64,000 bases of DNA from positions 32,001 through 96,000 of the forward strand of contig CAVRCF010000001.1 in NCBI GenBank assembly GCA_963719505.1, read 5' to 3'. Below the pieces are notes generated by a model. It ran no database searches, had not been told where the DNA came from, and saw only the letters and a list, made by a program, of their open reading frames with translations. Of the stretch, positions 19,394-35,244 are shown one piece after another. Position 1 is the first letter of the stretch. Each line of letters opens with the position of its first letter. The position numbers and the translations under genes are program-made. Source of the stretch: Halobacteriovoraceae bacterium (GTDB taxonomy: Bacteria; Bdellovibrionota; Bacteriovoracia; Bacteriovoracales; Bacteriovoracaceae).

Positions 19394-19599
19394 TGGCTAA
19401 TATGAAGAAGATCTTTGAAATTCAAAAATGGATGACTACAAAGGAAGCTGCTAATTATCTAAGAATGACTGAGAATGCATTTAGAATCTATGCTTCACGA
19501 TACAAGCTTGATGCTTACACATTGGGTGAAAAATCAGTTAGATATAAGACTTCCGACCTAGATAGACTCATGACCCTAAAAACTAGGAGTCACAAATGA
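19393..19599 (+). CDS. Excisionase-like HTH_17 protein
   Basis: WMTTKEAANYLR...VRYKTSDLD; coupled to integrase. Confidence 0.85.
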   Translation: MANMKKIFEIQKWMTTKEAANYLRMTENAFRIYASRYKLDAYTLGEKSVRYKTSDLDRLMTLKTRSHK

Positions 19600-20738
19600 C
19601 TATCATTAAAAAGAAAAACACGATTGGAGAAACTTACTTTCTCATTCGAGTTCAGTTGCGTTCAAAGATTCAACCTCATATTAGAATACAAAAACAAACT
19701 ACTCTTAAGGGCAAATTAGTTAATGCTAAAAAGGCTAAGCGTAGAGAACAAGAGCTGACTTATACCTGTATGGAGGAACTTAAGAAGCGAGAAGGAAGTG
19801 ATCTCTCATTTCAAGAGTTAATTGACCTTTGGTATTCCTATAAAGTCAGTGAAGAATTTATTACTCTAGAGACTGTTGGTGATTACTATAGAGCTTTACA
19901 GAAGTGGTGTTTCTCAATTTTAACAAAGCCATGTAACGAGATTGCAACTTCTGATGTGAAAGTTATTTTAAAAATGCAAAAAGATGAAGGTATCTCTAGA
20001 AGCTTTCGAAGAAAGTTTAAATCTATGATCAATAACGTCTATAAGTGGGGATTTGAAGAGGGATATCTTCATTCAACTAAATTCTCACCCACTGTGGGAA
20101 TTCAACTTGAAAGACGTGAAGAGAAAAAGCCAGAAATTTTAACCTTACAGCAAACAAGAGAGTTCTTAAATGCTGCTCGGACACTTGAACACCCATGGTA
20201 TCCAGTTTGGGCCTTTGCAATTCTAACAGGTGCACGAAATGGTGAGTTATATGCTCTAAACAAAAATGATGTTGATCTTGAAAATAATAAAATTATAATT
20301 TCGAAATCATTCAACAATAGGCGAGGCGAAATCAAGTCTACAAAAGCCGGTTATTATAGGACGGTTCCTATCAACCCTGAGCTAAAAGAATTGATTCTAG
20401 AGCTTAATAGGGCCAATCTAGACAGTGATTTTTTATTACCTCGACTATCTGGATGGAACAAAGGCTGCCAAGCACAAGTTCTAAGAACATTTCTTACTGG
20501 AATTAATCTACCAAGCGTGAAGTTTCATACATTGAGAGCATGCTTTGCAACTTTGTTACTTCAACAAGGCAAAGCACCCGCAGTAATAATGAAGATTTGT
20601 GGCTGGAGAGATCTAAAGACAATGGAACGTTATATTAGACTTGCAGGTGTTGATGAAAAAGGTGCAACAGACTCACTGAAAGTTCTTCCTCTTAAATCTC
20701 TGGACGAAGAATATTGTTTAAACTTCCCACAAAGATAG
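19596..20738 (+). CDS. Tyrosine recombinase/integrase
   Basis: TGARNGE (R), K, FHTLR (HxxR), GW, ERY (Y) all present. Confidence 0.95.
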   Translation: MTIIKKKNTIGETYFLIRVQLRSKIQPHIRIQKQTTLKGKLVNAKKAKRREQELTYTCMEELKKREGSDLSFQELIDLWYSYKVSEEFITLETVGDYYRALQKWCFSILTKPCNEIATSDVKVILKMQKDEGISRSFRRKFKSMINNVYKWGFEEGYLHSTKFSPTVGIQLERREEKKPEILTLQQTREFLNAARTLEHPWYPVWAFAILTGARNGELYALNKNDVDLENNKIIISKSFNNRRGEIKSTKAGYYRTVPINPELKELILELNRANLDSDFLLPRLSGWNKGCQAQVLRTFLTGINLPSVKFHTLRACFATLLLQQGKAPAVIMKICGWRDLKTMERYIRLAGVDEKGATDSLKVLPLKSLDEEYCLNFPQR

Positions 20739-28650: not shown

Positions 28651-28665
28651 ATAGTTTAAAACTAT
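28651..28665. promoter_or_regulatory. LysR-type box ATAG-N7-CTAT abutting the lysR start
   Basis: ATAGTTTAAAACTAT directly before ATG 28666. Confidence 0.65.
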
Positions 28666-29553
28666 ATGAAACTGACAGATCACCTTGAGAAATTAAAATA
28701 CTTCTATGAAGTTGCTAGTACAGGCTCCCTAAAAGGGGCCTCCAAAGTTGTTCATATTTCTCAACCCTCTTTGACAAAATCGATTAAAATTCTTGAGGAT
28801 GTTGTTGGGAGTAATCTTTTTGTCAGACTACCAAGAGGAATGAAGCTTACTCAAGAAGGTGAAGTTCTCTACCTTTACTGCCAGAACCTTTTTTCTTCAA
28901 TTACTGATATCGAACAAAAACTCGCTCACCCCAATGACTCACTTGCCGGCTCCCTTAGAATCGGAACCTATGACTCTATTGGTATTTATTTTTGGCCTAA
29001 GTTTTTACAAAAATTTCTTCTTAAATATGACAAGCTAGACATACAACTTCTCACTGGAAGAAGTGCAGAAATTCAAGACAAGCTCGATGCCGGTCAGATT
29101 GATATTGCTCTTATCGTGAACCCAAAAAAATCCCCCGGTATTGAAGTCGATATTTTAAATAACGACGCCTTCAAGCTGTATGAAAGTTGCTCGGATAAAG
29201 TTTATAAAAAAGGTAGTGAGGCTCCTATTATAGCGATGCCTACAGCGTCAGTTGGGACAGAAACGATCCGAGATATTTTAAATGGAATCGGATTTGGCGA
29301 AAGAAAAATCTATACAACTTCTACACTGGAGTCAGTAAAAGAGTTAACTCTTCATGGCATCGGTATGGGTCTTCTACCTGAGATGGTCGCCAAGTCCCCC
29401 TTATCTTCTAAAAAGATAAGAGAAGTAAAGCACAAGGGGCTTCCTAAAGAAGGAATTGGCCCCCATGCCATTGGCATTGCCTATCATTCAAATAGACGAA
29501 ATTCAAAGATCATCGAAGTATTAATTAAAGAAATAAAAAATCATAAACTTTAG
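28666..29553 (+). CDS. LysR-family transcriptional regulator
   Basis: GSLKGASKVVHISQPSLTKSIKILE...LF.R..RG..LT..G. Confidence 0.95.
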   Translation: MKLTDHLEKLKYFYEVASTGSLKGASKVVHISQPSLTKSIKILEDVVGSNLFVRLPRGMKLTQEGEVLYLYCQNLFSSITDIEQKLAHPNDSLAGSLRIGTYDSIGIYFWPKFLQKFLLKYDKLDIQLLTGRSAEIQDKLDAGQIDIALIVNPKKSPGIEVDILNNDAFKLYESCSDKVYKKGSEAPIIAMPTASVGTETIRDILNGIGFGERKIYTTSTLESVKELTLHGIGMGLLPEMVAKSPLSSKKIREVKHKGLPKEGIGPHAIGIAYHSNRRNSKIIEVLIKEIKNHKL

Positions 29554-30158
29554 TAGACATCACTTATCTCCTCAAGCTTCTTACGCATAATATTTGGGAG
29601 TTCATAATTGGGATTCTTACGACCAAGGGCCAAAATAAGAAAAGGCCTCTCATTTTTAGGTCGCCCAAGTGTCGCATTCAAAAACCGCATAGGAGACGGA
29701 GTGTGAGTCAAACTTGATATTCCGAGTCTATGTAGTGCTGTAATAAGAATTCCCGTCGCTATTCCCACTGACTCTTTTGAATAATAGCACTTGCTATTTG
29801 TCTCACTTTCAATTGTTTTTGAGAAAATAACAATAAGAGCAGAAGCCTCTTCCAGATGAGGTTTCTCCCAGTTTGTTTTTAAATGTTTTAAATCCTCTAG
29901 CCAGCTTTTGTTTTGTCGCCTGTGATAGAAATCAAATTCTTCTTTTTCAGCTTCAATTCTTATCTTCTTTTTCATCTCACTACTTCTAATGATGGCGAAA
30001 TACCACGGCTGTTTATTGGCCCCACTTGGAGCCGTTCCAGCAGCCCGAATACAGTGTTGGATAACCTCTAAAGGAATTTCTTCATCGGTGAATCTGCGAA
30101 CAGTCCTTCGCTCATTCATTAGGTTGTAAAAATTTTGGGCGCTTCTCTTTAAATCCAT
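29550..30158 (-). CDS. Iodotyrosine deiodinase-like nitroreductase
   Basis: RRTVRRF, TAPSGANKQPW, AEKEE..FY, TNWEKPHL, ESVGIA, LTHTPSPM: IYD-subgroup signature. Confidence 0.8.
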   Translation of the reverse strand: MDLKRSAQNFYNLMNERRTVRRFTDEEIPLEVIQHCIRAAGTAPSGANKQPWYFAIIRSSEMKKKIRIEAEKEEFDFYHRRQNKSWLEDLKHLKTNWEKPHLEEASALIVIFSKTIESETNSKCYYSKESVGIATGILITALHRLGISSLTHTPSPMRFLNATLGRPKNERPFLILALGRKNPNYELPNIMRKKLEEISDVY

Positions 30159-30166
30159 GTTTTTCC

Positions 30167-31285
30167 TCAGTGATATAAATGCATCGTAAGAAATGATCGG
30201 TGCTCGGGATTTCCAGGTTTACTAACAAAACTTCGTCTTTGATACTCGACTTGAAACTCTATATGAGGAAGAGGAAGCAGTTGGAATCCAAGACCTGGGG
30301 AGGTGATCATTGTACTACTCTCTTTAAGGTTACTTTGAGAGTGTTCAAAAATAAAATAGCCTAAGCCACCTTTGAATACCTTGTACCCAAATTGATGATC
30401 CCCATAAATCGCATCAACTTGGCTTTCGTATTCGTCATTACTGTTAAGTAGACTCTTTTGTTCATAATCGATCTCCGATCTCCCTATCCAATTCTGCCCT
30501 AGCGGAATTAGAGCATTTAGGCCATAGATCGCTCTTCTATACTGGTCGGACTTTCCAGTTAATAAACTCGCTCCAACTCTAGAAGAGCCTCCCATATAAT
30601 GGGTGTAGTTGAAGGCAAAATTTCTCTTTGAATCGTCCTCATCCTTTTCTTCAAAGAAGTCTCCCAGACTCACTGAAGTATTAAACTCGCCCCAATCAAA
30701 GTACTGAGAAAATTCAAAATTATAGGTTTCTGAGTTAGAGCCAAACCCTAGGCTTGTTTTAACAAACCTTGTATGATTTGGGTGATTAATTCCAAAGTGT
30801 TGACGAAACTTACCAACTCGAACTCTGGTATTTTCAGAACTCTCCCACAACACATAATGGCGCTCACTTAAAAACTCTCCCTTCTCCTGTGTCTCATCTG
30901 GCCCCTCTTTTGTTCCTACTGTCCCGACTAAGAAAGACTGCATGTACTTCACTGCAAATTCTAAGTTATTTTGCATCACAAATTGTTTTTCTACCTTTAC
31001 TTGGTCATTTTCGGCCTGAAATTGAATCACTCTCAACTGACCACCATATTTTATATTCTCACTATTTTTTACCGCTCCGTAGTAAGGATTCTCCATTCCC
31101 TCATAACCTTTCCAGGTACTCATCAACTCAGATGATAAACCACGTCCGTAGTCAGTTAAAATTCCCCCTCCATTTGGAGAGATATGACAAGCCATACAAT
31201 TTGGATAGCCTTTGGTCGTGTTCTCAACGAATGAATAACTGAGATGAGAAATGAATAAAAAAACGATGATCAATTGAGCTTTCAT
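30167..31285 (-). CDS. Outer-membrane beta-barrel with N-terminal CxxCH heme motif
   Basis: Signal peptide, GYPNCMACHISPNGGGILTDYGR, then porin-like amphipathic strands. Confidence 0.7.
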   Translation of the reverse strand: MKAQLIIVFLFISHLSYSFVENTTKGYPNCMACHISPNGGGILTDYGRGLSSELMSTWKGYEGMENPYYGAVKNSENIKYGGQLRVIQFQAENDQVKVEKQFVMQNNLEFAVKYMQSFLVGTVGTKEGPDETQEKGEFLSERHYVLWESSENTRVRVGKFRQHFGINHPNHTRFVKTSLGFGSNSETYNFEFSQYFDWGEFNTSVSLGDFFEEKDEDDSKRNFAFNYTHYMGGSSRVGASLLTGKSDQYRRAIYGLNALIPLGQNWIGRSEIDYEQKSLLNSNDEYESQVDAIYGDHQFGYKVFKGGLGYFIFEHSQSNLKESSTMITSPGLGFQLLPLPHIEFQVEYQRRSFVSKPGNPEHRSFLTMHLYH

Positions 31286-31818
31286 TAATTGTCTTTAAAC
31301 TGCGTTTTGACATTTAGTTTTACTTTATTTGCTGCCGTTACTCCTTGGAATGAAGGCAGCTCAATACCAAAATCACTAAGCTGTATCTCGAAGCTATTTT
31401 CCATTGATATCTGAGATGAATCTCTAGAAATTCTTGTTTCTAGATCTATTTCTTTTTTTTGGCCGTGCAACTCTAAAACGGCCTTAAGAATTTGTCTTTC
31501 ATCTGTGGGCGAGATCTTTTGTTTGGAGATTGTTAATTTTGCCAAAGGATATTTTTGAGTCTCTAAATATTTACCTTTTAAATGCTCATCTCTTAAATCG
31601 ATACCAGAGTTTAATTTATCCAATTTTACGATGGCACTACCTTCAATAAAGTCTTCTCCAATATTAAATGTTGAATCTCCTAATGGAACTTCTCCACTGG
31701 CCTTAATAAAAGATGGACGCCCAGTTGCCGTAAATTTTATATCGGACTTTGTGATCGCTAAACTAGCAAAGGCACTTGAACTTAAGGCCAAAAGTATTAT
31801 TAAACTTATATTTTTCAT
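31285..31818 (-). CDS. yceI: YceI-family lipid/ligand-binding periplasmic protein
   Basis: LNSGIDLRDEHL..YLE...YP, L.LHG, L.DFGI..P. Confidence 0.88.
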   Translation of the reverse strand: MKNISLIILLALSSSAFASLAITKSDIKFTATGRPSFIKASGEVPLGDSTFNIGEDFIEGSAIVKLDKLNSGIDLRDEHLKGKYLETQKYPLAKLTISKQKISPTDERQILKAVLELHGQKKEIDLETRISRDSSQISMENSFEIQLSDFGIELPSFQGVTAANKVKLNVKTQFKDN

Positions 31819-32471
31819 CTTATTTCCCCTTCAGGTAAACCTTTTTCTATCCATTCTAAGACAGTCTTTATTTCTTCTTCATTTAGGCGTTCTATATTGG
31901 ACCATACCGGTGGCATAGGCTCCGTAGGATCTGTAAGAACTTCCATCAAGTAACTGTTTTCAACATCTTCAAAGTTATTTAATAAATAATCTCTTTGTTC
32001 AAAAAACTTCTGCCTTGTACTCAAATCTAAAAAGCTTGCTTGTCCATTTGGATTATGGCATTGCACGCATTTTGGAAAAAAGACTTTCTTAGACAGGGAG
32101 TTCCATGTCGGTTCCAATTTCGTGCTCGGCCTAGGATCCACACCAGTTCCAAGAGGAGCTCCACTATCCACCCATGTTTTGAGCAAAGATTTCTTGTAGT
32201 CATCTAAAGCGGAGGCATTCTTTGGCATTCTATCTTGTAAGACAGCTGTTAAAATTTTATCTTTCTCATTCAAAACAGCTTCGTAATCACTGTATCCAGC
32301 ATGACACTGGATACAGCTAGGTTTTAGTATTTCGTCGCTTATATTTTTGAAAGATAATTCTTCTAGGGTAAACACCCCACCAAATTTTGATGTAGGATTT
32401 TCTTTTAATTCTACTGAGCTTCCACATGAGCTTATGAGACAGAGGCATAATAAAGTTAATAGAATTTTCAT
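31815..32471 (-). CDS. Diheme cytochrome c lipoprotein
   Basis: LISSC lipobox; CIQCH...RMP and CVQCH...PMPP. Confidence 0.8.
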   Translation of the reverse strand: MKILLTLLCLCLISSCGSSVELKENPTSKFGGVFTLEELSFKNISDEILKPSCIQCHAGYSDYEAVLNEKDKILTAVLQDRMPKNASALDDYKKSLLKTWVDSGAPLGTGVDPRPSTKLEPTWNSLSKKVFFPKCVQCHNPNGQASFLDLSTRQKFFEQRDYLLNNFEDVENSYLMEVLTDPTEPMPPVWSNIERLNEEEIKTVLEWIEKGLPEGEIR

Positions 32472-32494
32472 AGAAGTCTCCACCATCGAGTCAG

Positions 32495-32989
32495 TTAAAG
32501 TCTTGGTTCTTCACCAGAGATGCGTTTCCAATTAGCGTCAGCTTTAGCAGCATTGCCTGCAATGTCACGATCGAAGTAATTCTTTGCTCTAGAGTTAACG
32601 AAGAAGTAGGACCTATTGCCTACGACAGTGAAAAGTTCTGTGTTGATGTGAACTTTTTGACCCACGACCATAGCTCTGGCACACCACCCACCATAGGTCG
32701 GTTCAAATTTTTCAGGCTGACTTAAAAAAAGCTTCATATTTTGTGCATTGGCGAAAAAATACTCCACTCCTTGTGTCGTGACAGCAAATTCTTTCTTTCC
32801 AACTAGTGCTATCCCTCCACCATCAGTAAAAACCGAAACGGGATCAAAAGCTTGAGCATTTGAAGCATTCCCATTGACAAGTCCAACTCCGACCGAGTTT
32901 AAGTTATACTCTGAGATGTTTCTTCCTTCTTGTGCACTAACCGTAAGTGTTAAGAGAGAGAGAACCGCCATTAAAAACCAATTTTTCAT
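32495..32989 (-). CDS. Secreted YHS-domain protein
   Basis: FDPVSVF, YFFAN..N..LF...PEKFEPTYGGWCA. Confidence 0.85.
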   Translation of the reverse strand: MKNWFLMAVLSLLTLTVSAQEGRNISEYNLNSVGVGLVNGNASNAQAFDPVSVFTDGGGIALVGKKEFAVTTQGVEYFFANAQNMKLFLSQPEKFEPTYGGWCARAMVVGQKVHINTELFTVVGNRSYFFVNSRAKNYFDRDIAGNAAKADANWKRISGEEPRL

Positions 32990-33081
32990 AATTCCTCTTT
33001 TGTTTTTCCAGATTCATTTCTGTCTGCAACTAAGTTAACAAAAAGAATGGTATAAAAATAATTGATTAATCGAATATATCC

Positions 33082-33096
33082 ATAGCTAAAAGCTAT
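33082..33096. promoter_or_regulatory. LysR-type box ATAG-N7-CTAT upstream of the YHS operon
   Basis: ATAGCTAAAAGCTAT about 95 bp upstream of start 32989. Confidence 0.65.
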
Positions 33097-33163: not shown

Positions 33164-33598
33164 TTATTTTCTCCCCCAAAAAGGTGCACCAAAAGTAGAG
33201 AGCACAAAGATAGAGAGCATAAGATAATTAAAGGGAAGTATAACTTCATCCAATAAAGTTTTAAGATTAGGACTTTCGTATACTTTATAAAACCTAAAAA
33301 TAATGACGATAAGAAGAAAGACATCCAGTATTTTGGGTGCTTTTTTAATATTTTTTAATAAGACCAAAAGTATATTTTTTTCCTTAAAAAGCTCTGGGAA
33401 ATATTTTGAGTTCACAAATATTGAAACGGGTAATGAGATGAGTAAATATAAAAGGTTAATGGATATTAAAAGTTTATAGTTATCATCTTTATCGATGAGT
33501 TCTTTAACGATGAGTTCAAATAGAAAACAGGCGTTCAAAAAAATTAGACTTAAAAAATGTAGGATAAATATATTTTTATATTTTTTTATAAAATTCAT
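33164..33598 (-). CDS. Hypothetical membrane protein (very AT-rich)
   Basis: 4 TM; starts 2 bp after the upstream gene stop. Confidence 0.55.
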   Translation of the reverse strand: MNFIKKYKNIFILHFLSLIFLNACFLFELIVKELIDKDDNYKLLISINLLYLLISLPVSIFVNSKYFPELFKEKNILLVLLKNIKKAPKILDVFLLIVIIFRFYKVYESPNLKTLLDEVILPFNYLMLSIFVLSTFGAPFWGRK

Positions 33599-33600
33599 AG

Positions 33601-35244
33601 TTACATCCTATCCTCTTCAAATATTATTATGGGCATATCGCGTGATTCATACGTTCTTCTATTATTTAATTGTAAACCCGCCAGGGAGTTTGCATTTCGA
33701 CTACCAGTCTGCGCCTCTAGATAGTCTCCCTGAGCATCTGAACATCTCGCATAAACTGATGGTCTTCCAGGGTTAACCTCCATGCTCATTTTGATAGACA
33801 TTTTAGCCTTTGATAATCTCTCTATAGTGTATTTATCCATTCCTACTTCTTCAAGTGCTCTTGGGTCAACTTTAGATAAAGATCCTCTTTTTATCGTCTC
33901 TTTTTCATCTTCCTCATCTTCAACTTCGTCTTCTGTAAAATCTACTTCCTCAACCTCTGGCTCGGGTTTTGGTTCATCCTTAGGTTCCTTTTTTGGTGGC
34001 TCTGGATCAGTATTAGTATTCTCATATGTGGGTTGGGAAGCATTATTTCTAGTAGCTGTTTCCACACCATCCAAAACTTGATCTATGCCTTTATCCTTTA
34101 GGTCTATTAACTCCTTCGAGAAAAAGCCCATGGCAAACCCAGCAATAAAAGCTGATCTACTACCACCTAATCCTCTTCCCACAAAGGCAGCAGCTGTCGC
34201 CCCAGTGTTAATTCTTCCAACCAAATCAATTCCAGCTTTAACCATTCTTTTATTCACAACTCCTCGGTCTAAATCCCCCATAGGACCTATTGATGGACCA
34301 AAATCTCCACCACCATATGCTGTAGACATATCTCCAACAAACTCATTCATTCTGGAGTCTTCATGGTTACTCATAAGCGCATCATATTGATGAGATCCTC
34401 TATCAAAAGAGGATTCAATTCTGCCTCTTAAACGAGCAAGGGGTGCGTGATATCCGAGACGGGAAACTTCAGATAAATAATCTCTTGTTTCTCTCCTTGA
34501 AACATCGCTTGAAGACTCAAAGTGATCACTATAATGACCTTCCCTCCCCAGGGGTCCTTCCATTTCCAAGTTTTCTGTATTGAAGTGTTCAAATGAATTA
34601 AATATTTCTTGGTAAGCGATCTCATCGTTCATAAAAAGTGCAGCTCTTGCAAGATCATCATAAACGGCCAACCCACAGCCATAGCTATTCTCGCAAGCTT
34701 CAAGTCTTGAATCTAAGTCTAACCGCTCTAATGAAAGAGAGTTGTAGAGCCTTTCAAGTTCTGTTTTACCTTCTGGTTTTATCTCAAGTCGCAATACTCC
34801 TAAAAGATCTCGATCGATTTCAACGTCGTCTCTTTCAAACTCAATTTCAGTAATATTAAAGTGATAAAGGTTCGCGACAAGCATATCTGAGAGGAAAGAT
34901 GCTAAATGAATCTTATAAATCTCTGCCTTTTTATCTAAAGCTATTTCATCAACATAGAGATCAACATTTCTAACAAGGTTAAAAATCTTCGCACTATTTT
35001 CAACCCTCTCTAACAAAAAGTGTTGTTTGGCTACTTGCTCTTTAACCAAAGGATTAATTCCATAGTAATGAATTGAAAATTCCTTGAGTGCAATAAAGTA
35101 CCGAGAAGTAATGTCACTGGTCGATTGAAGGCTAAAAACATTTTGAATAAGCTTTTTATCAAATGGTTTCAGCAAAGAGCCATCAGAGCCAAAGCTAGAG
35201 AGAATAAAGGAAAAAAATAGAATGAAAATAAATTGTTTCTTCAT
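33601..35244 (-). CDS. Secreted hypothetical protein with Gly-rich hydrophobic hairpin and acidic/Pro linker
   Basis: Signal peptide; TGATAAAFVGRGLGG..AFIAGFAMG; EPKPEPEVEE...DEEDE. Confidence 0.7.
   Translation of the reverse strand: MKKQFIFILFFSFILSSFGSDGSLLKPFDKKLIQNVFSLQSTSDITSRYFIALKEFSIHYYGINPLVKEQVAKQHFLLERVENSAKIFNLVRNVDLYVDEIALDKKAEIYKIHLASFLSDMLVANLYHFNITEIEFERDDVEIDRDLLGVLRLEIKPEGKTELERLYNSLSLERLDLDSRLEACENSYGCGLAVYDDLARAALFMNDEIAYQEIFNSFEHFNTENLEMEGPLGREGHYSDHFESSSDVSRRETRDYLSEVSRLGYHAPLARLRGRIESSFDRGSHQYDALMSNHEDSRMNEFVGDMSTAYGGGDFGPSIGPMGDLDRGVVNKRMVKAGIDLVGRINTGATAAAFVGRGLGGSRSAFIAGFAMGFFSKELIDLKDKGIDQVLDGVETATRNNASQPTYENTNTDPEPPKKEPKDEPKPEPEVEEVDFTEDEVEDEEDEKETIKRGSLSKVDPRALEEVGMDKYTIERLSKAKMSIKMSMEVNPGRPSVYARCSDAQGDYLEAQTGSRNANSLAGLQLNNRRTYESRDMPIIIFEEDRM

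Follow-up and report, generated by a model that had tools for sequence, protein, structure and literature searches.

What does a relative of iodotyrosine deiodinase (IYD), the thyroid enzyme that removes iodine, bromine or chlorine from tyrosine, do in an operon of a predatory-type bacterium that otherwise encodes exported proteins? The question is raised by a locus at positions 28651..33096 of a 64,000-nt stretch of DNA (hereafter, the window) from Halobacteriovoraceae bacterium (assembly GCA_963719505.1, contig CAVRCF010000001.1, positions 32,001-96,000). Sequence comparisons show that the enzyme is a genuine IYD, that its gene is accompanied by one for a LysR-type regulator, that the operator is conserved, and that the enzyme is repeatedly co-regulated with exported redox-type proteins. 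The parts are of known kinds, and what chemistry they jointly perform we infer. An earlier note, made from the letters of this DNA alone, had suggested that the system might be undescribed, and the literature that we covered, mostly open-access papers, likewise yielded no paper on the operon, its regulator or the porin family; the supplementary Cyc2 alignments of PMC8406198 could hold members of the porin family, and the passages of PMC10654088 that we consulted make no mention of Bdellovibrio. The present analysis contributes the core unit of LysR and IYD, its operator, the variety of exported cargo and a haloperoxidase-IYD pair described below.

The locus consists of six genes:

32495-32989, minus strand: YHS protein gene, first gene of the operon
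31815-32486, minus strand: gene for a diheme cytochrome c lipoprotein, second gene
31285-31818, minus strand: YceI gene, third gene
30167-31285, minus strand: gene for a barrel protein (heme-porin), fourth gene
29550-30158, minus strand: gene for a nitroreductase-fold IYD, fifth and last gene
28666-29553, plus strand: lysR, convergent to the operon

The gaps between the consecutive minus-strand genes are 8, -4, -1 and 8 bp, and the end of lysR overlaps the IYD stop codon by 4 bp. The packed operon and the convergent regulator are found where the earlier note had placed them, and this layout indicates co-transcription of IYD with exported redox-type proteins. The protein names given in that note hold for the YHS, PSCyt1, YceI, LysR and nitroreductase families, all of which score over their cut-offs; the barrel belongs to no Pfam or NCBIfam family. 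A signal peptide was identified by sequence check in each of the four envelope proteins and is absent in IYD, whereas a simple hydropathy test found no inner-membrane or other internal membrane helix in any of the six proteins, and neither gene calls nor family scans detected a flavin reductase gene in the operon. The GC content of the operon (36-39%) is close to that of the genome (37%), and the named homologs of its proteins come nearly all from Bdellovibrionota, the nearest ones from Bacteriovoracales, which suggests a host from this group.

The product of 29550-30158 scores over the cut-off of the nitroreductase family (PF00881). Its best solved relative is 5ko7 (E 1.7e-57), which we take to be the Haliscomenobacter hydrossis enzyme, followed by four mammalian IYD sequences and 6pz0; the E-values of the IYD structures range from 1.7e-57 to 5e-28, and the remaining nitroreductases are at 2e-10 or weaker. 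Residues E74, Y78 and K99 align with the E1 lid of the solved enzymes and are invariant in 22 rows of the alignment, as are A47, the phenolate-site alanine, and T153, a threonine near N5 of flavin mononucleotide (FMN) and the presumed N5 partner. The Glu, Tyr and Lys residues of this lid bind the zwitterion of the amino acid and define the IYD subgroup (PMC8668982). Given this E-value gap and the E74/Y78/K99/A47/T153 set, the protein clusters, as anticipated, inside the IYD subgroup of the nitroreductase superfamily, and can be predicted to be a cytoplasmic halotyrosine dehalogenase with the FMN nitroreductase fold.

The regulator contains both LysR domains (PF00126 and PF03466, over cut-off) and falls below the cut-offs of all 25 NCBIfam models listed; against the OxyR model it scores 62 bits, the cut-off being 329. 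The conserved residues of its effector domain include Ser, Thr, Arg, Glu and His but no Cys pair, which favours a small-molecule ligand. All 9 of its close orthologs in our sample of 251 Bdellovibrionota genomes adjoin IYD, which supports the assignment of this LysR, from gene neighborhoods, as a regulator dedicated to IYD, the two genes being the tightest unit and the fixed core of the system. The class features of LysR-type regulators are seen in its HTH_1 and substrate domains and in a predicted T-N11-A dyad near both its own and the target promoter, which fits the geometry of LysR sites (PMC11495319). The following sites are predicted:

33082..33096, no strand assigned: predicted LysR site with the sequence ATAGC-N5-GCTAT, which lies 93-107 bp before the operon's first ATG
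28651..28665, no strand assigned: second predicted LysR site (autoregulation), ATAG-N7-CTAT, abutting the lysR ATG
33061-33075, minus strand: possible weak second T-N11-A site, read by eye
33040-33032, minus strand: possible extended -10 element, TG-n-TAACTT, read by eye, which would place the main box near -64

The elements at 33032..33075 are not among the results of the promoter scan, which itself performed at chance level (10 found, 11.7 expected). Counting the ATAG-N7-CTAT pattern is not informative either: the window holds three copies against 1.1 expected, a number reached in 7 of 100 shuffles and hence within chance, and the genome holds 62, with 49-88 for other spacer lengths. The third copy (33597-33611), which lies at the junction of two unrelated open reading frames (ORFs) and ranks 349th with the matrix described below, is probably a chance match. 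Support for the boxes comes instead from their conservation in other genomes. A box with at most one mismatch is present in 11 of 17 regions of other genomes, hand-picked beside the LysR clade or the first target gene and partly after the pattern had been seen, as compared with 65 of 1,707 upstream regions of the own genome, for which a somewhat shorter window was used. The matrix built from the 11 foreign sites ranks the 33082 box 1st and the 28651 box 20th among 17,474 candidates in the own genome; the outer eight positions of this matrix are circular by selection, unlike the fifth C and the eleventh G. The box at the lysR ATG keeps the same -15 position in three other loci (L026, L189 and L196), detached YHS units retain a box in L218, L053 and L110, and genome G253 encodes a separate YHS-cytochrome unit with a box of its own. 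The proposal of the earlier note that one and the same box precedes the operon and abuts lysR stands as regards the presence and conservation of both sites; the third match in the window had gone unlisted.

The YHS protein matches NF041384 with 94.1 bits (curated cut-off 70) and is an exported tandem-YHS protein with a single conserved cysteine, Cys103, which lies within a G-W-C motif and is invariant in 65 rows; its structural model (pLDDT 91) matched only small TRASH/YHS-like domains (best Z 6.0). Relatives carry selenocysteine at the conserved cysteine, within a GxU motif, according to PMC13188914 and PMC9312934, which list the family in table rows only. Several close relatives (P0133, P0135 and P0137) are fused behind a lipoprotein-type Yx(FWY)xxD domain (PF03640, SCO0930-like), and a YHS-family match in another genome (G102:C1:462562-462780) contains one in-frame TGA and could be a selenocysteine form or a broken gene. 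The diheme cytochrome contains the planctomycete-type PSCyt1 domain (PF07635, over cut-off), a lipobox with Cys21, and CxxCH motifs at 58-62 and 140-144; all of these, together with Met87 and Met191, are invariant in 27 rows, and the two methionines are likely axial ligands, implying His/Met ligation of the hemes. The YceI protein (PF04264, 62.5 bits, over cut-off, with a signal peptide) is, by analogy, likely a quinone or isoprenoid carrier: ubiquinone-8 and similar isoprenoids are ligands of YceI proteins, which act together with a cytochrome to detoxify the envelope (PMC9113575).

For the barrel, a profile search identified no solved relative by sequence and no plasmid match. The structural model, obtained with a 58-row alignment (pLDDT 85.6, with low confidence around the heme motif), consists of 16 barrel strands behind an N-terminal CxxCH, and its best fold match is OprP (2o4v; Z 24.4, root mean square deviation 3.1, 291 aligned residues), within a neighborhood of anion-selective and substrate-specific porins. 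The family comprises 2,027 clusters at 50% identity (E up to 0.001) and has the motif GY-x2-CxxCH-x3-GGG-x-L-x2-YGR. All of 137 cluster representatives, taken from the 150 best listed, retain Met104 and His171, and nearly all retain His341 and His369; these residues are candidate ligands of heme or metal. The protein shares the layout of the iron oxidase Cyc2, namely a signal peptide, a single CxxCH, a 16-strand OprP-like porin and a length of at least 365 aa, whereas the motifs that identify Cyc2, AxPxFAR[Q/K][T/Y] upstream of CxxCH and PxL after it (PMC8406198), were both found in 0 of the 137 representatives and are absent here as well. The barrel is best described as a Cyc2-like cytochrome-porin of the outer membrane that belongs to a separate, unnamed family. 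A complex prediction for the barrel, the diheme cytochrome and three hemes scored 0.00 and was used neither way.

Of 185 barrel loci surveyed, not all of them independent, 132 have YceI, 128 a cytochrome, 33 YHS and 20 IYD. A tree of 66 distinct barrels (which excludes loci L076-L105 and L128-L185) separates a close clade of 54 from 12 distant barrels. In the close clade, IYD lies directly behind the barrel in 17 cases, is absent in 32 and is undecidable in 5; for the presence of YHS the corresponding numbers are 29, 11 and 14; neither gene is in view at any of the 12 distant barrels. Copper genes are found near 24 of 89 distant and 0 of 57 close barrels, which weakens a copper function for the close clade that we had considered. 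The own genome contains two distant heme-porin paralogs, with gene names taken from ORF reading: one (G000 C5:1053997-1075197) lies among multicopper-oxidase, CsoR-like, YceI and cation-efflux genes, and the other (C1:337670-344440) beside a cluster of CxxCH lipoproteins.

Viewed from the enzyme, IYD is present in 16 of the 251 genomes; a LysR gene lies within 5 kb of 13 of these 16 and a gene for an exported protein within 5 kb on the same strand of 8, the exported partners being YHS, cytochrome, YceI, barrel, spondin, RskA-like and vanadium haloperoxidase proteins. Among 38 distinct IYDs, 17 of which were found through the barrel (one further locus was missed by the motif filter), 30 have LysR and 25 an exported partner. 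IYD is encoded in 8 of the 13 genomes with a close barrel as compared with 8 of the 238 others, counts that are uncontrolled for kinship and habitat. Where a barrel has no IYD beside it, the enzyme is encoded elsewhere in the genome in 12 of 25 cases for close barrels and in 2 of 25 for distant ones (a subset of the 39 loci L067-L105). IYD lies behind the barrel in each of the three supported clades of Bdellovibrionota IYDs and in two subclades of the barrel, and the gene orders differ: lysR is divergent (L026) or convergent (here and in L030), IYD comes first (L199, L282), or the barrel is missing (L276). At L209, spondin and RskA-like genes are added to the IYD unit, and one IYD (L280) follows the DM13 partner pattern. 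In genome G227, IYD begins only a few bases behind a gene for a secreted vanadium haloperoxidase-like protein, the best match of which is 4cit at E 3.5e-43 (L216:5490-7366); this brings a halogenating and a dehalogenating enzyme together in one unit. Judged from gene neighborhoods, the envelope genes are variable cargo, one of several exported cargoes and often unlinked to IYD. Of the linkage of five genes plus LysR that the earlier note proposed to trace by a synteny search, the recurrence of all six genes is confirmed; the fixed core, in contrast, is LysR and IYD only.

Several further observations concern the neighbors of IYD. Exported bacterial proteins with spondin, RskA-like and DM13 domains recur on the IYD strand (L030:5597, L188:2093, L197:844, L209:9677-10986, L191:480 and L280:2194), and this recurrence suggests a shared role. 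In one genus only, LysR-IYD lies just upstream of Phe/Tyr biosynthesis genes (L202:3225-9581 in G188 and L203:6553-11631 in G265), namely those for DAHP synthase/chorismate mutase, an aminotransferase, prephenate dehydrogenase and prephenate dehydratase, an arrangement that fits tyrosine salvage; the L202 unit also includes YHS and the cytochrome. A TPMT-family methyltransferase gene lies within 4 kb of IYD in two positions (L042:9676, L038, L045 and L120); with 4 of 38 distinct loci, all of one clade, it was rejected as a fixed partner, and the enzyme could, in keeping with the activity of its family, methylate the released halide. The same operon is found on a contig titled Flavobacteriaceae (L030), the proteins of which group with Bdellovibrionota, so that the contig may be mislabelled. 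The window segment 19596-26589, which lies directly upstream of the locus studied here, contains a phage-integrase gene (19596-20738), helix-turn-helix and recombinase-like genes and a lone kinase-like ORF, and has a lower GC content (32-37%); it is possibly the edge of a mobile island.

We propose that these genes form a halotyrosine-responsive regulon in which LysR senses halotyrosine and IYD salvages tyrosine, a reading of the sequence data that we consider probable. The LysR protein would bind halotyrosine or a close halophenol, activate the operon and repress its own gene, and the cytoplasmic IYD would turn halotyrosine into tyrosine and halide with a reductant encoded elsewhere. Because halotyrosines arise as by-products of hypohalous acid chemistry (PMC11126969), halotyrosine could betray contact of the cell with reactive halogens (HOBr, HOI/I2, HOCl), and the same signal may also switch on an envelope defence. 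The porin heme, the diheme lipoprotein and a YceI-bound quinone would then form a short electron path that starts at the quinol pool, ends at the outer membrane and reduces the oxidant on its way into the pore; the cysteine of the YHS protein (selenocysteine in relatives) would act as a nucleophilic trap. For the mechanism as a whole, that is, a halotyrosine-sensing regulon joined to an envelope redox defence against reactive halogens, we put the chances somewhat below even. More tentative is the specific proposal of a hitherto unknown bacterial reactive-halogen defence in which LysR reads halotyrosine as a damage signal and induces both the dehalogenase and a heme-porin/diheme/quinone-carrier wire through which HOBr, HOI or I2 would be reduced at the cell surface. 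The idea of the earlier note that trans-envelope heme chemistry is coupled with dehalogenation survives as co-regulation of the genes; the hemes themselves are unlikely to serve IYD as reductant, and the chemical link of the envelope module to halogens we infer.

A number of observations weigh against the halogen-linked reading. The barrel adjoins only 3 of the 16 sampled IYDs, and among the close barrels with a decidable neighborhood, 32 of 49 lack IYD beside them; no IYD match was detected in 13 of 25 genomes (drafts) with an unlinked close barrel, and in G223, which has LysR, YHS, cytochrome, YceI and barrel, IYD was not found. The barrel family, present in 145 of the 251 genomes, evidently serves other ends as well, and is not halogen-specific because its distant members sit in copper islands. 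The five IYD loci read from other phyla (of 8 plasmid-collection loci; a viral scan gave no locus) have none of these partners, and tblastn of the own genome gave no match for the haloperoxidase, spondin, RskA-like or DM13 proteins. One alternative is regulatory capture, whereby a general envelope redox module (cytochrome, YceI and barrel, with YHS) came to be driven by the promoter of a small LysR+IYD salvage unit, in one or two events among related lineages and without any chemical connection to halogens. Such capture would fit a core module far commoner than IYD (145 versus 16 genomes) and the many close barrels that lack adjacent IYD, and would explain why, in the genus g48, IYD lies beside the Phe/Tyr biosynthesis genes with the module elsewhere, and the co-occurrence itself could reflect kinship or a marine habitat. 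We nevertheless regard it as unlikely, given that the linkage is seen repeatedly, in three IYD clades and under differing gene orders, that detached YHS units keep their boxes, and that other exported proteins are recruited in the same manner. Also quite unlikely, in our estimate, is a Cyc2-like oxidase, in which the barrel heme would oxidise an external donor, be it Fe(II), Cu(I), iodide or a reduced halo-aromatic, and the electrons would travel inward through the diheme protein and a YceI-bound quinone. The layout of the barrel, its pairing with a diheme cytochrome, which recalls the Cyc2-Cyc1 path (PMC10654088), several conserved His and Glu residues that could bind metal and the copper islands of distant members all speak for it, but both Cyc2 motifs are missing and the close clade has no copper genes nearby; moreover, iron oxidation leaves control by an IYD-dedicated regulator unexplained, and iodide oxidation generally needs a potential above that of the usual c-type hemes.

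An uptake role is one to which we assign a decidedly low likelihood: the barrel would be a channel, gated by its heme, that admits halotyrosine or halo-aromatics derived from prey or algal material, YceI would ferry the lipophilic ones and IYD would recover tyrosine. The folds nearest to the barrel are anion-selective and substrate-specific porins, the barrel has conserved Arg residues, LysR control is typical of catabolic operons (PMC11495319), and the g48 arrangement would agree with it; yet the operon encodes no inner-membrane transporter, transport does not need three c-type hemes, and most LysR-IYD units have no barrel. The boxes might alternatively be OxyR sites that place the operon in a peroxide regulon. 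ATAG-N7-CTAT is also the OxyR half-site, and a similar site lies at C1:700374 between genes that we read as oxyR-like and ahpC-like; but in other genomes the box goes with the cognate lysR, whose ATG it abuts, and with the matrix of foreign sites the operon box comes 1st and the one near ahpC 105th, which makes this explanation very improbable. Scarcely credible, finally, is a role of the envelope hemes as electron donor of IYD, for which co-transcription and the missing flavin reductase gene could be cited: IYD is predicted to be cytoplasmic, the other four proteins are exported and nothing links them through the inner membrane, hemes c with His/Met ligation are generally too oxidising to reduce FMN, and most IYDs have no such neighbors.

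If the reactive-halogen defence proves true, it would provide the first physiological role for a bacterial IYD and the first non-metal substrate for a Cyc2-like cytochrome-porin. The dedicated regulator and the defined operator make the role and the natural signal of bacterial IYD directly testable, and a halotyrosine-sensing LysR, if confirmed, would be a useful biosensor. The cytochrome-porin family is large and unnamed, and shares the architecture of the iron oxidase Cyc2 although it is distinct from it; should one of its clades be tied to halogen chemistry, this would imply wider roles and would caution against reading every cytochrome-porin as a sign of iron oxidation.

The solved IYDs (5ko7, the mammalian 3gb5 and 4ttb, and 6pz0 from Thermotoga) are the top matches of the enzyme, by at least 30 orders of magnitude for the mesophilic ones, and share with it the Glu/Tyr/Lys lid, the Ala and the Thr; the protein studied here also has a short N-terminus without an anchor. 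With BenM, OdcR, HypT and OxyR, LysR-type regulators that control the breakdown of halo-aromatics or the response to reactive chlorine (PMC11495319), the regulator shares a T-N11-A dyad, an autoregulatory site and a divergent or convergent place beside its target, but it lacks the Cys pair of OxyR and scores below the cut-offs of the 25 NCBIfam models listed. In the YHS domain-containing (seleno)proteins of NF041384, the GxC motif found here aligns with GxU, the present protein being the Cys form. Compared by layout and motifs only, the barrel resembles Cyc2 of Acidithiobacillus and Mariprofundus (PMC8406198) in its signal peptide, one CxxCH, 16-strand OprP/OprO-like barrel, length over 365 aa and diheme partner, and differs from it by the absence of both Cyc2 motifs, by its own motif and the Met104/His171/His341/His369 set, and by its occurrence with YceI in predatory Bdellovibrionota rather than in iron oxidisers. 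A further parallel is the BcnA (YceI)-LcoA (cytochrome b561)-PsrA system of peroxyl-radical detoxification in the envelope (PMC9113575), in which YceI is likewise co-transcribed with a cytochrome and joins forces with a cytoplasmic reductase against oxidative damage; no cytochrome b561 is encoded among the six genes described here, the cytochromes of which are c-type and predicted to lie at the outer membrane, and the cytoplasmic enzyme is a predicted dehalogenase.

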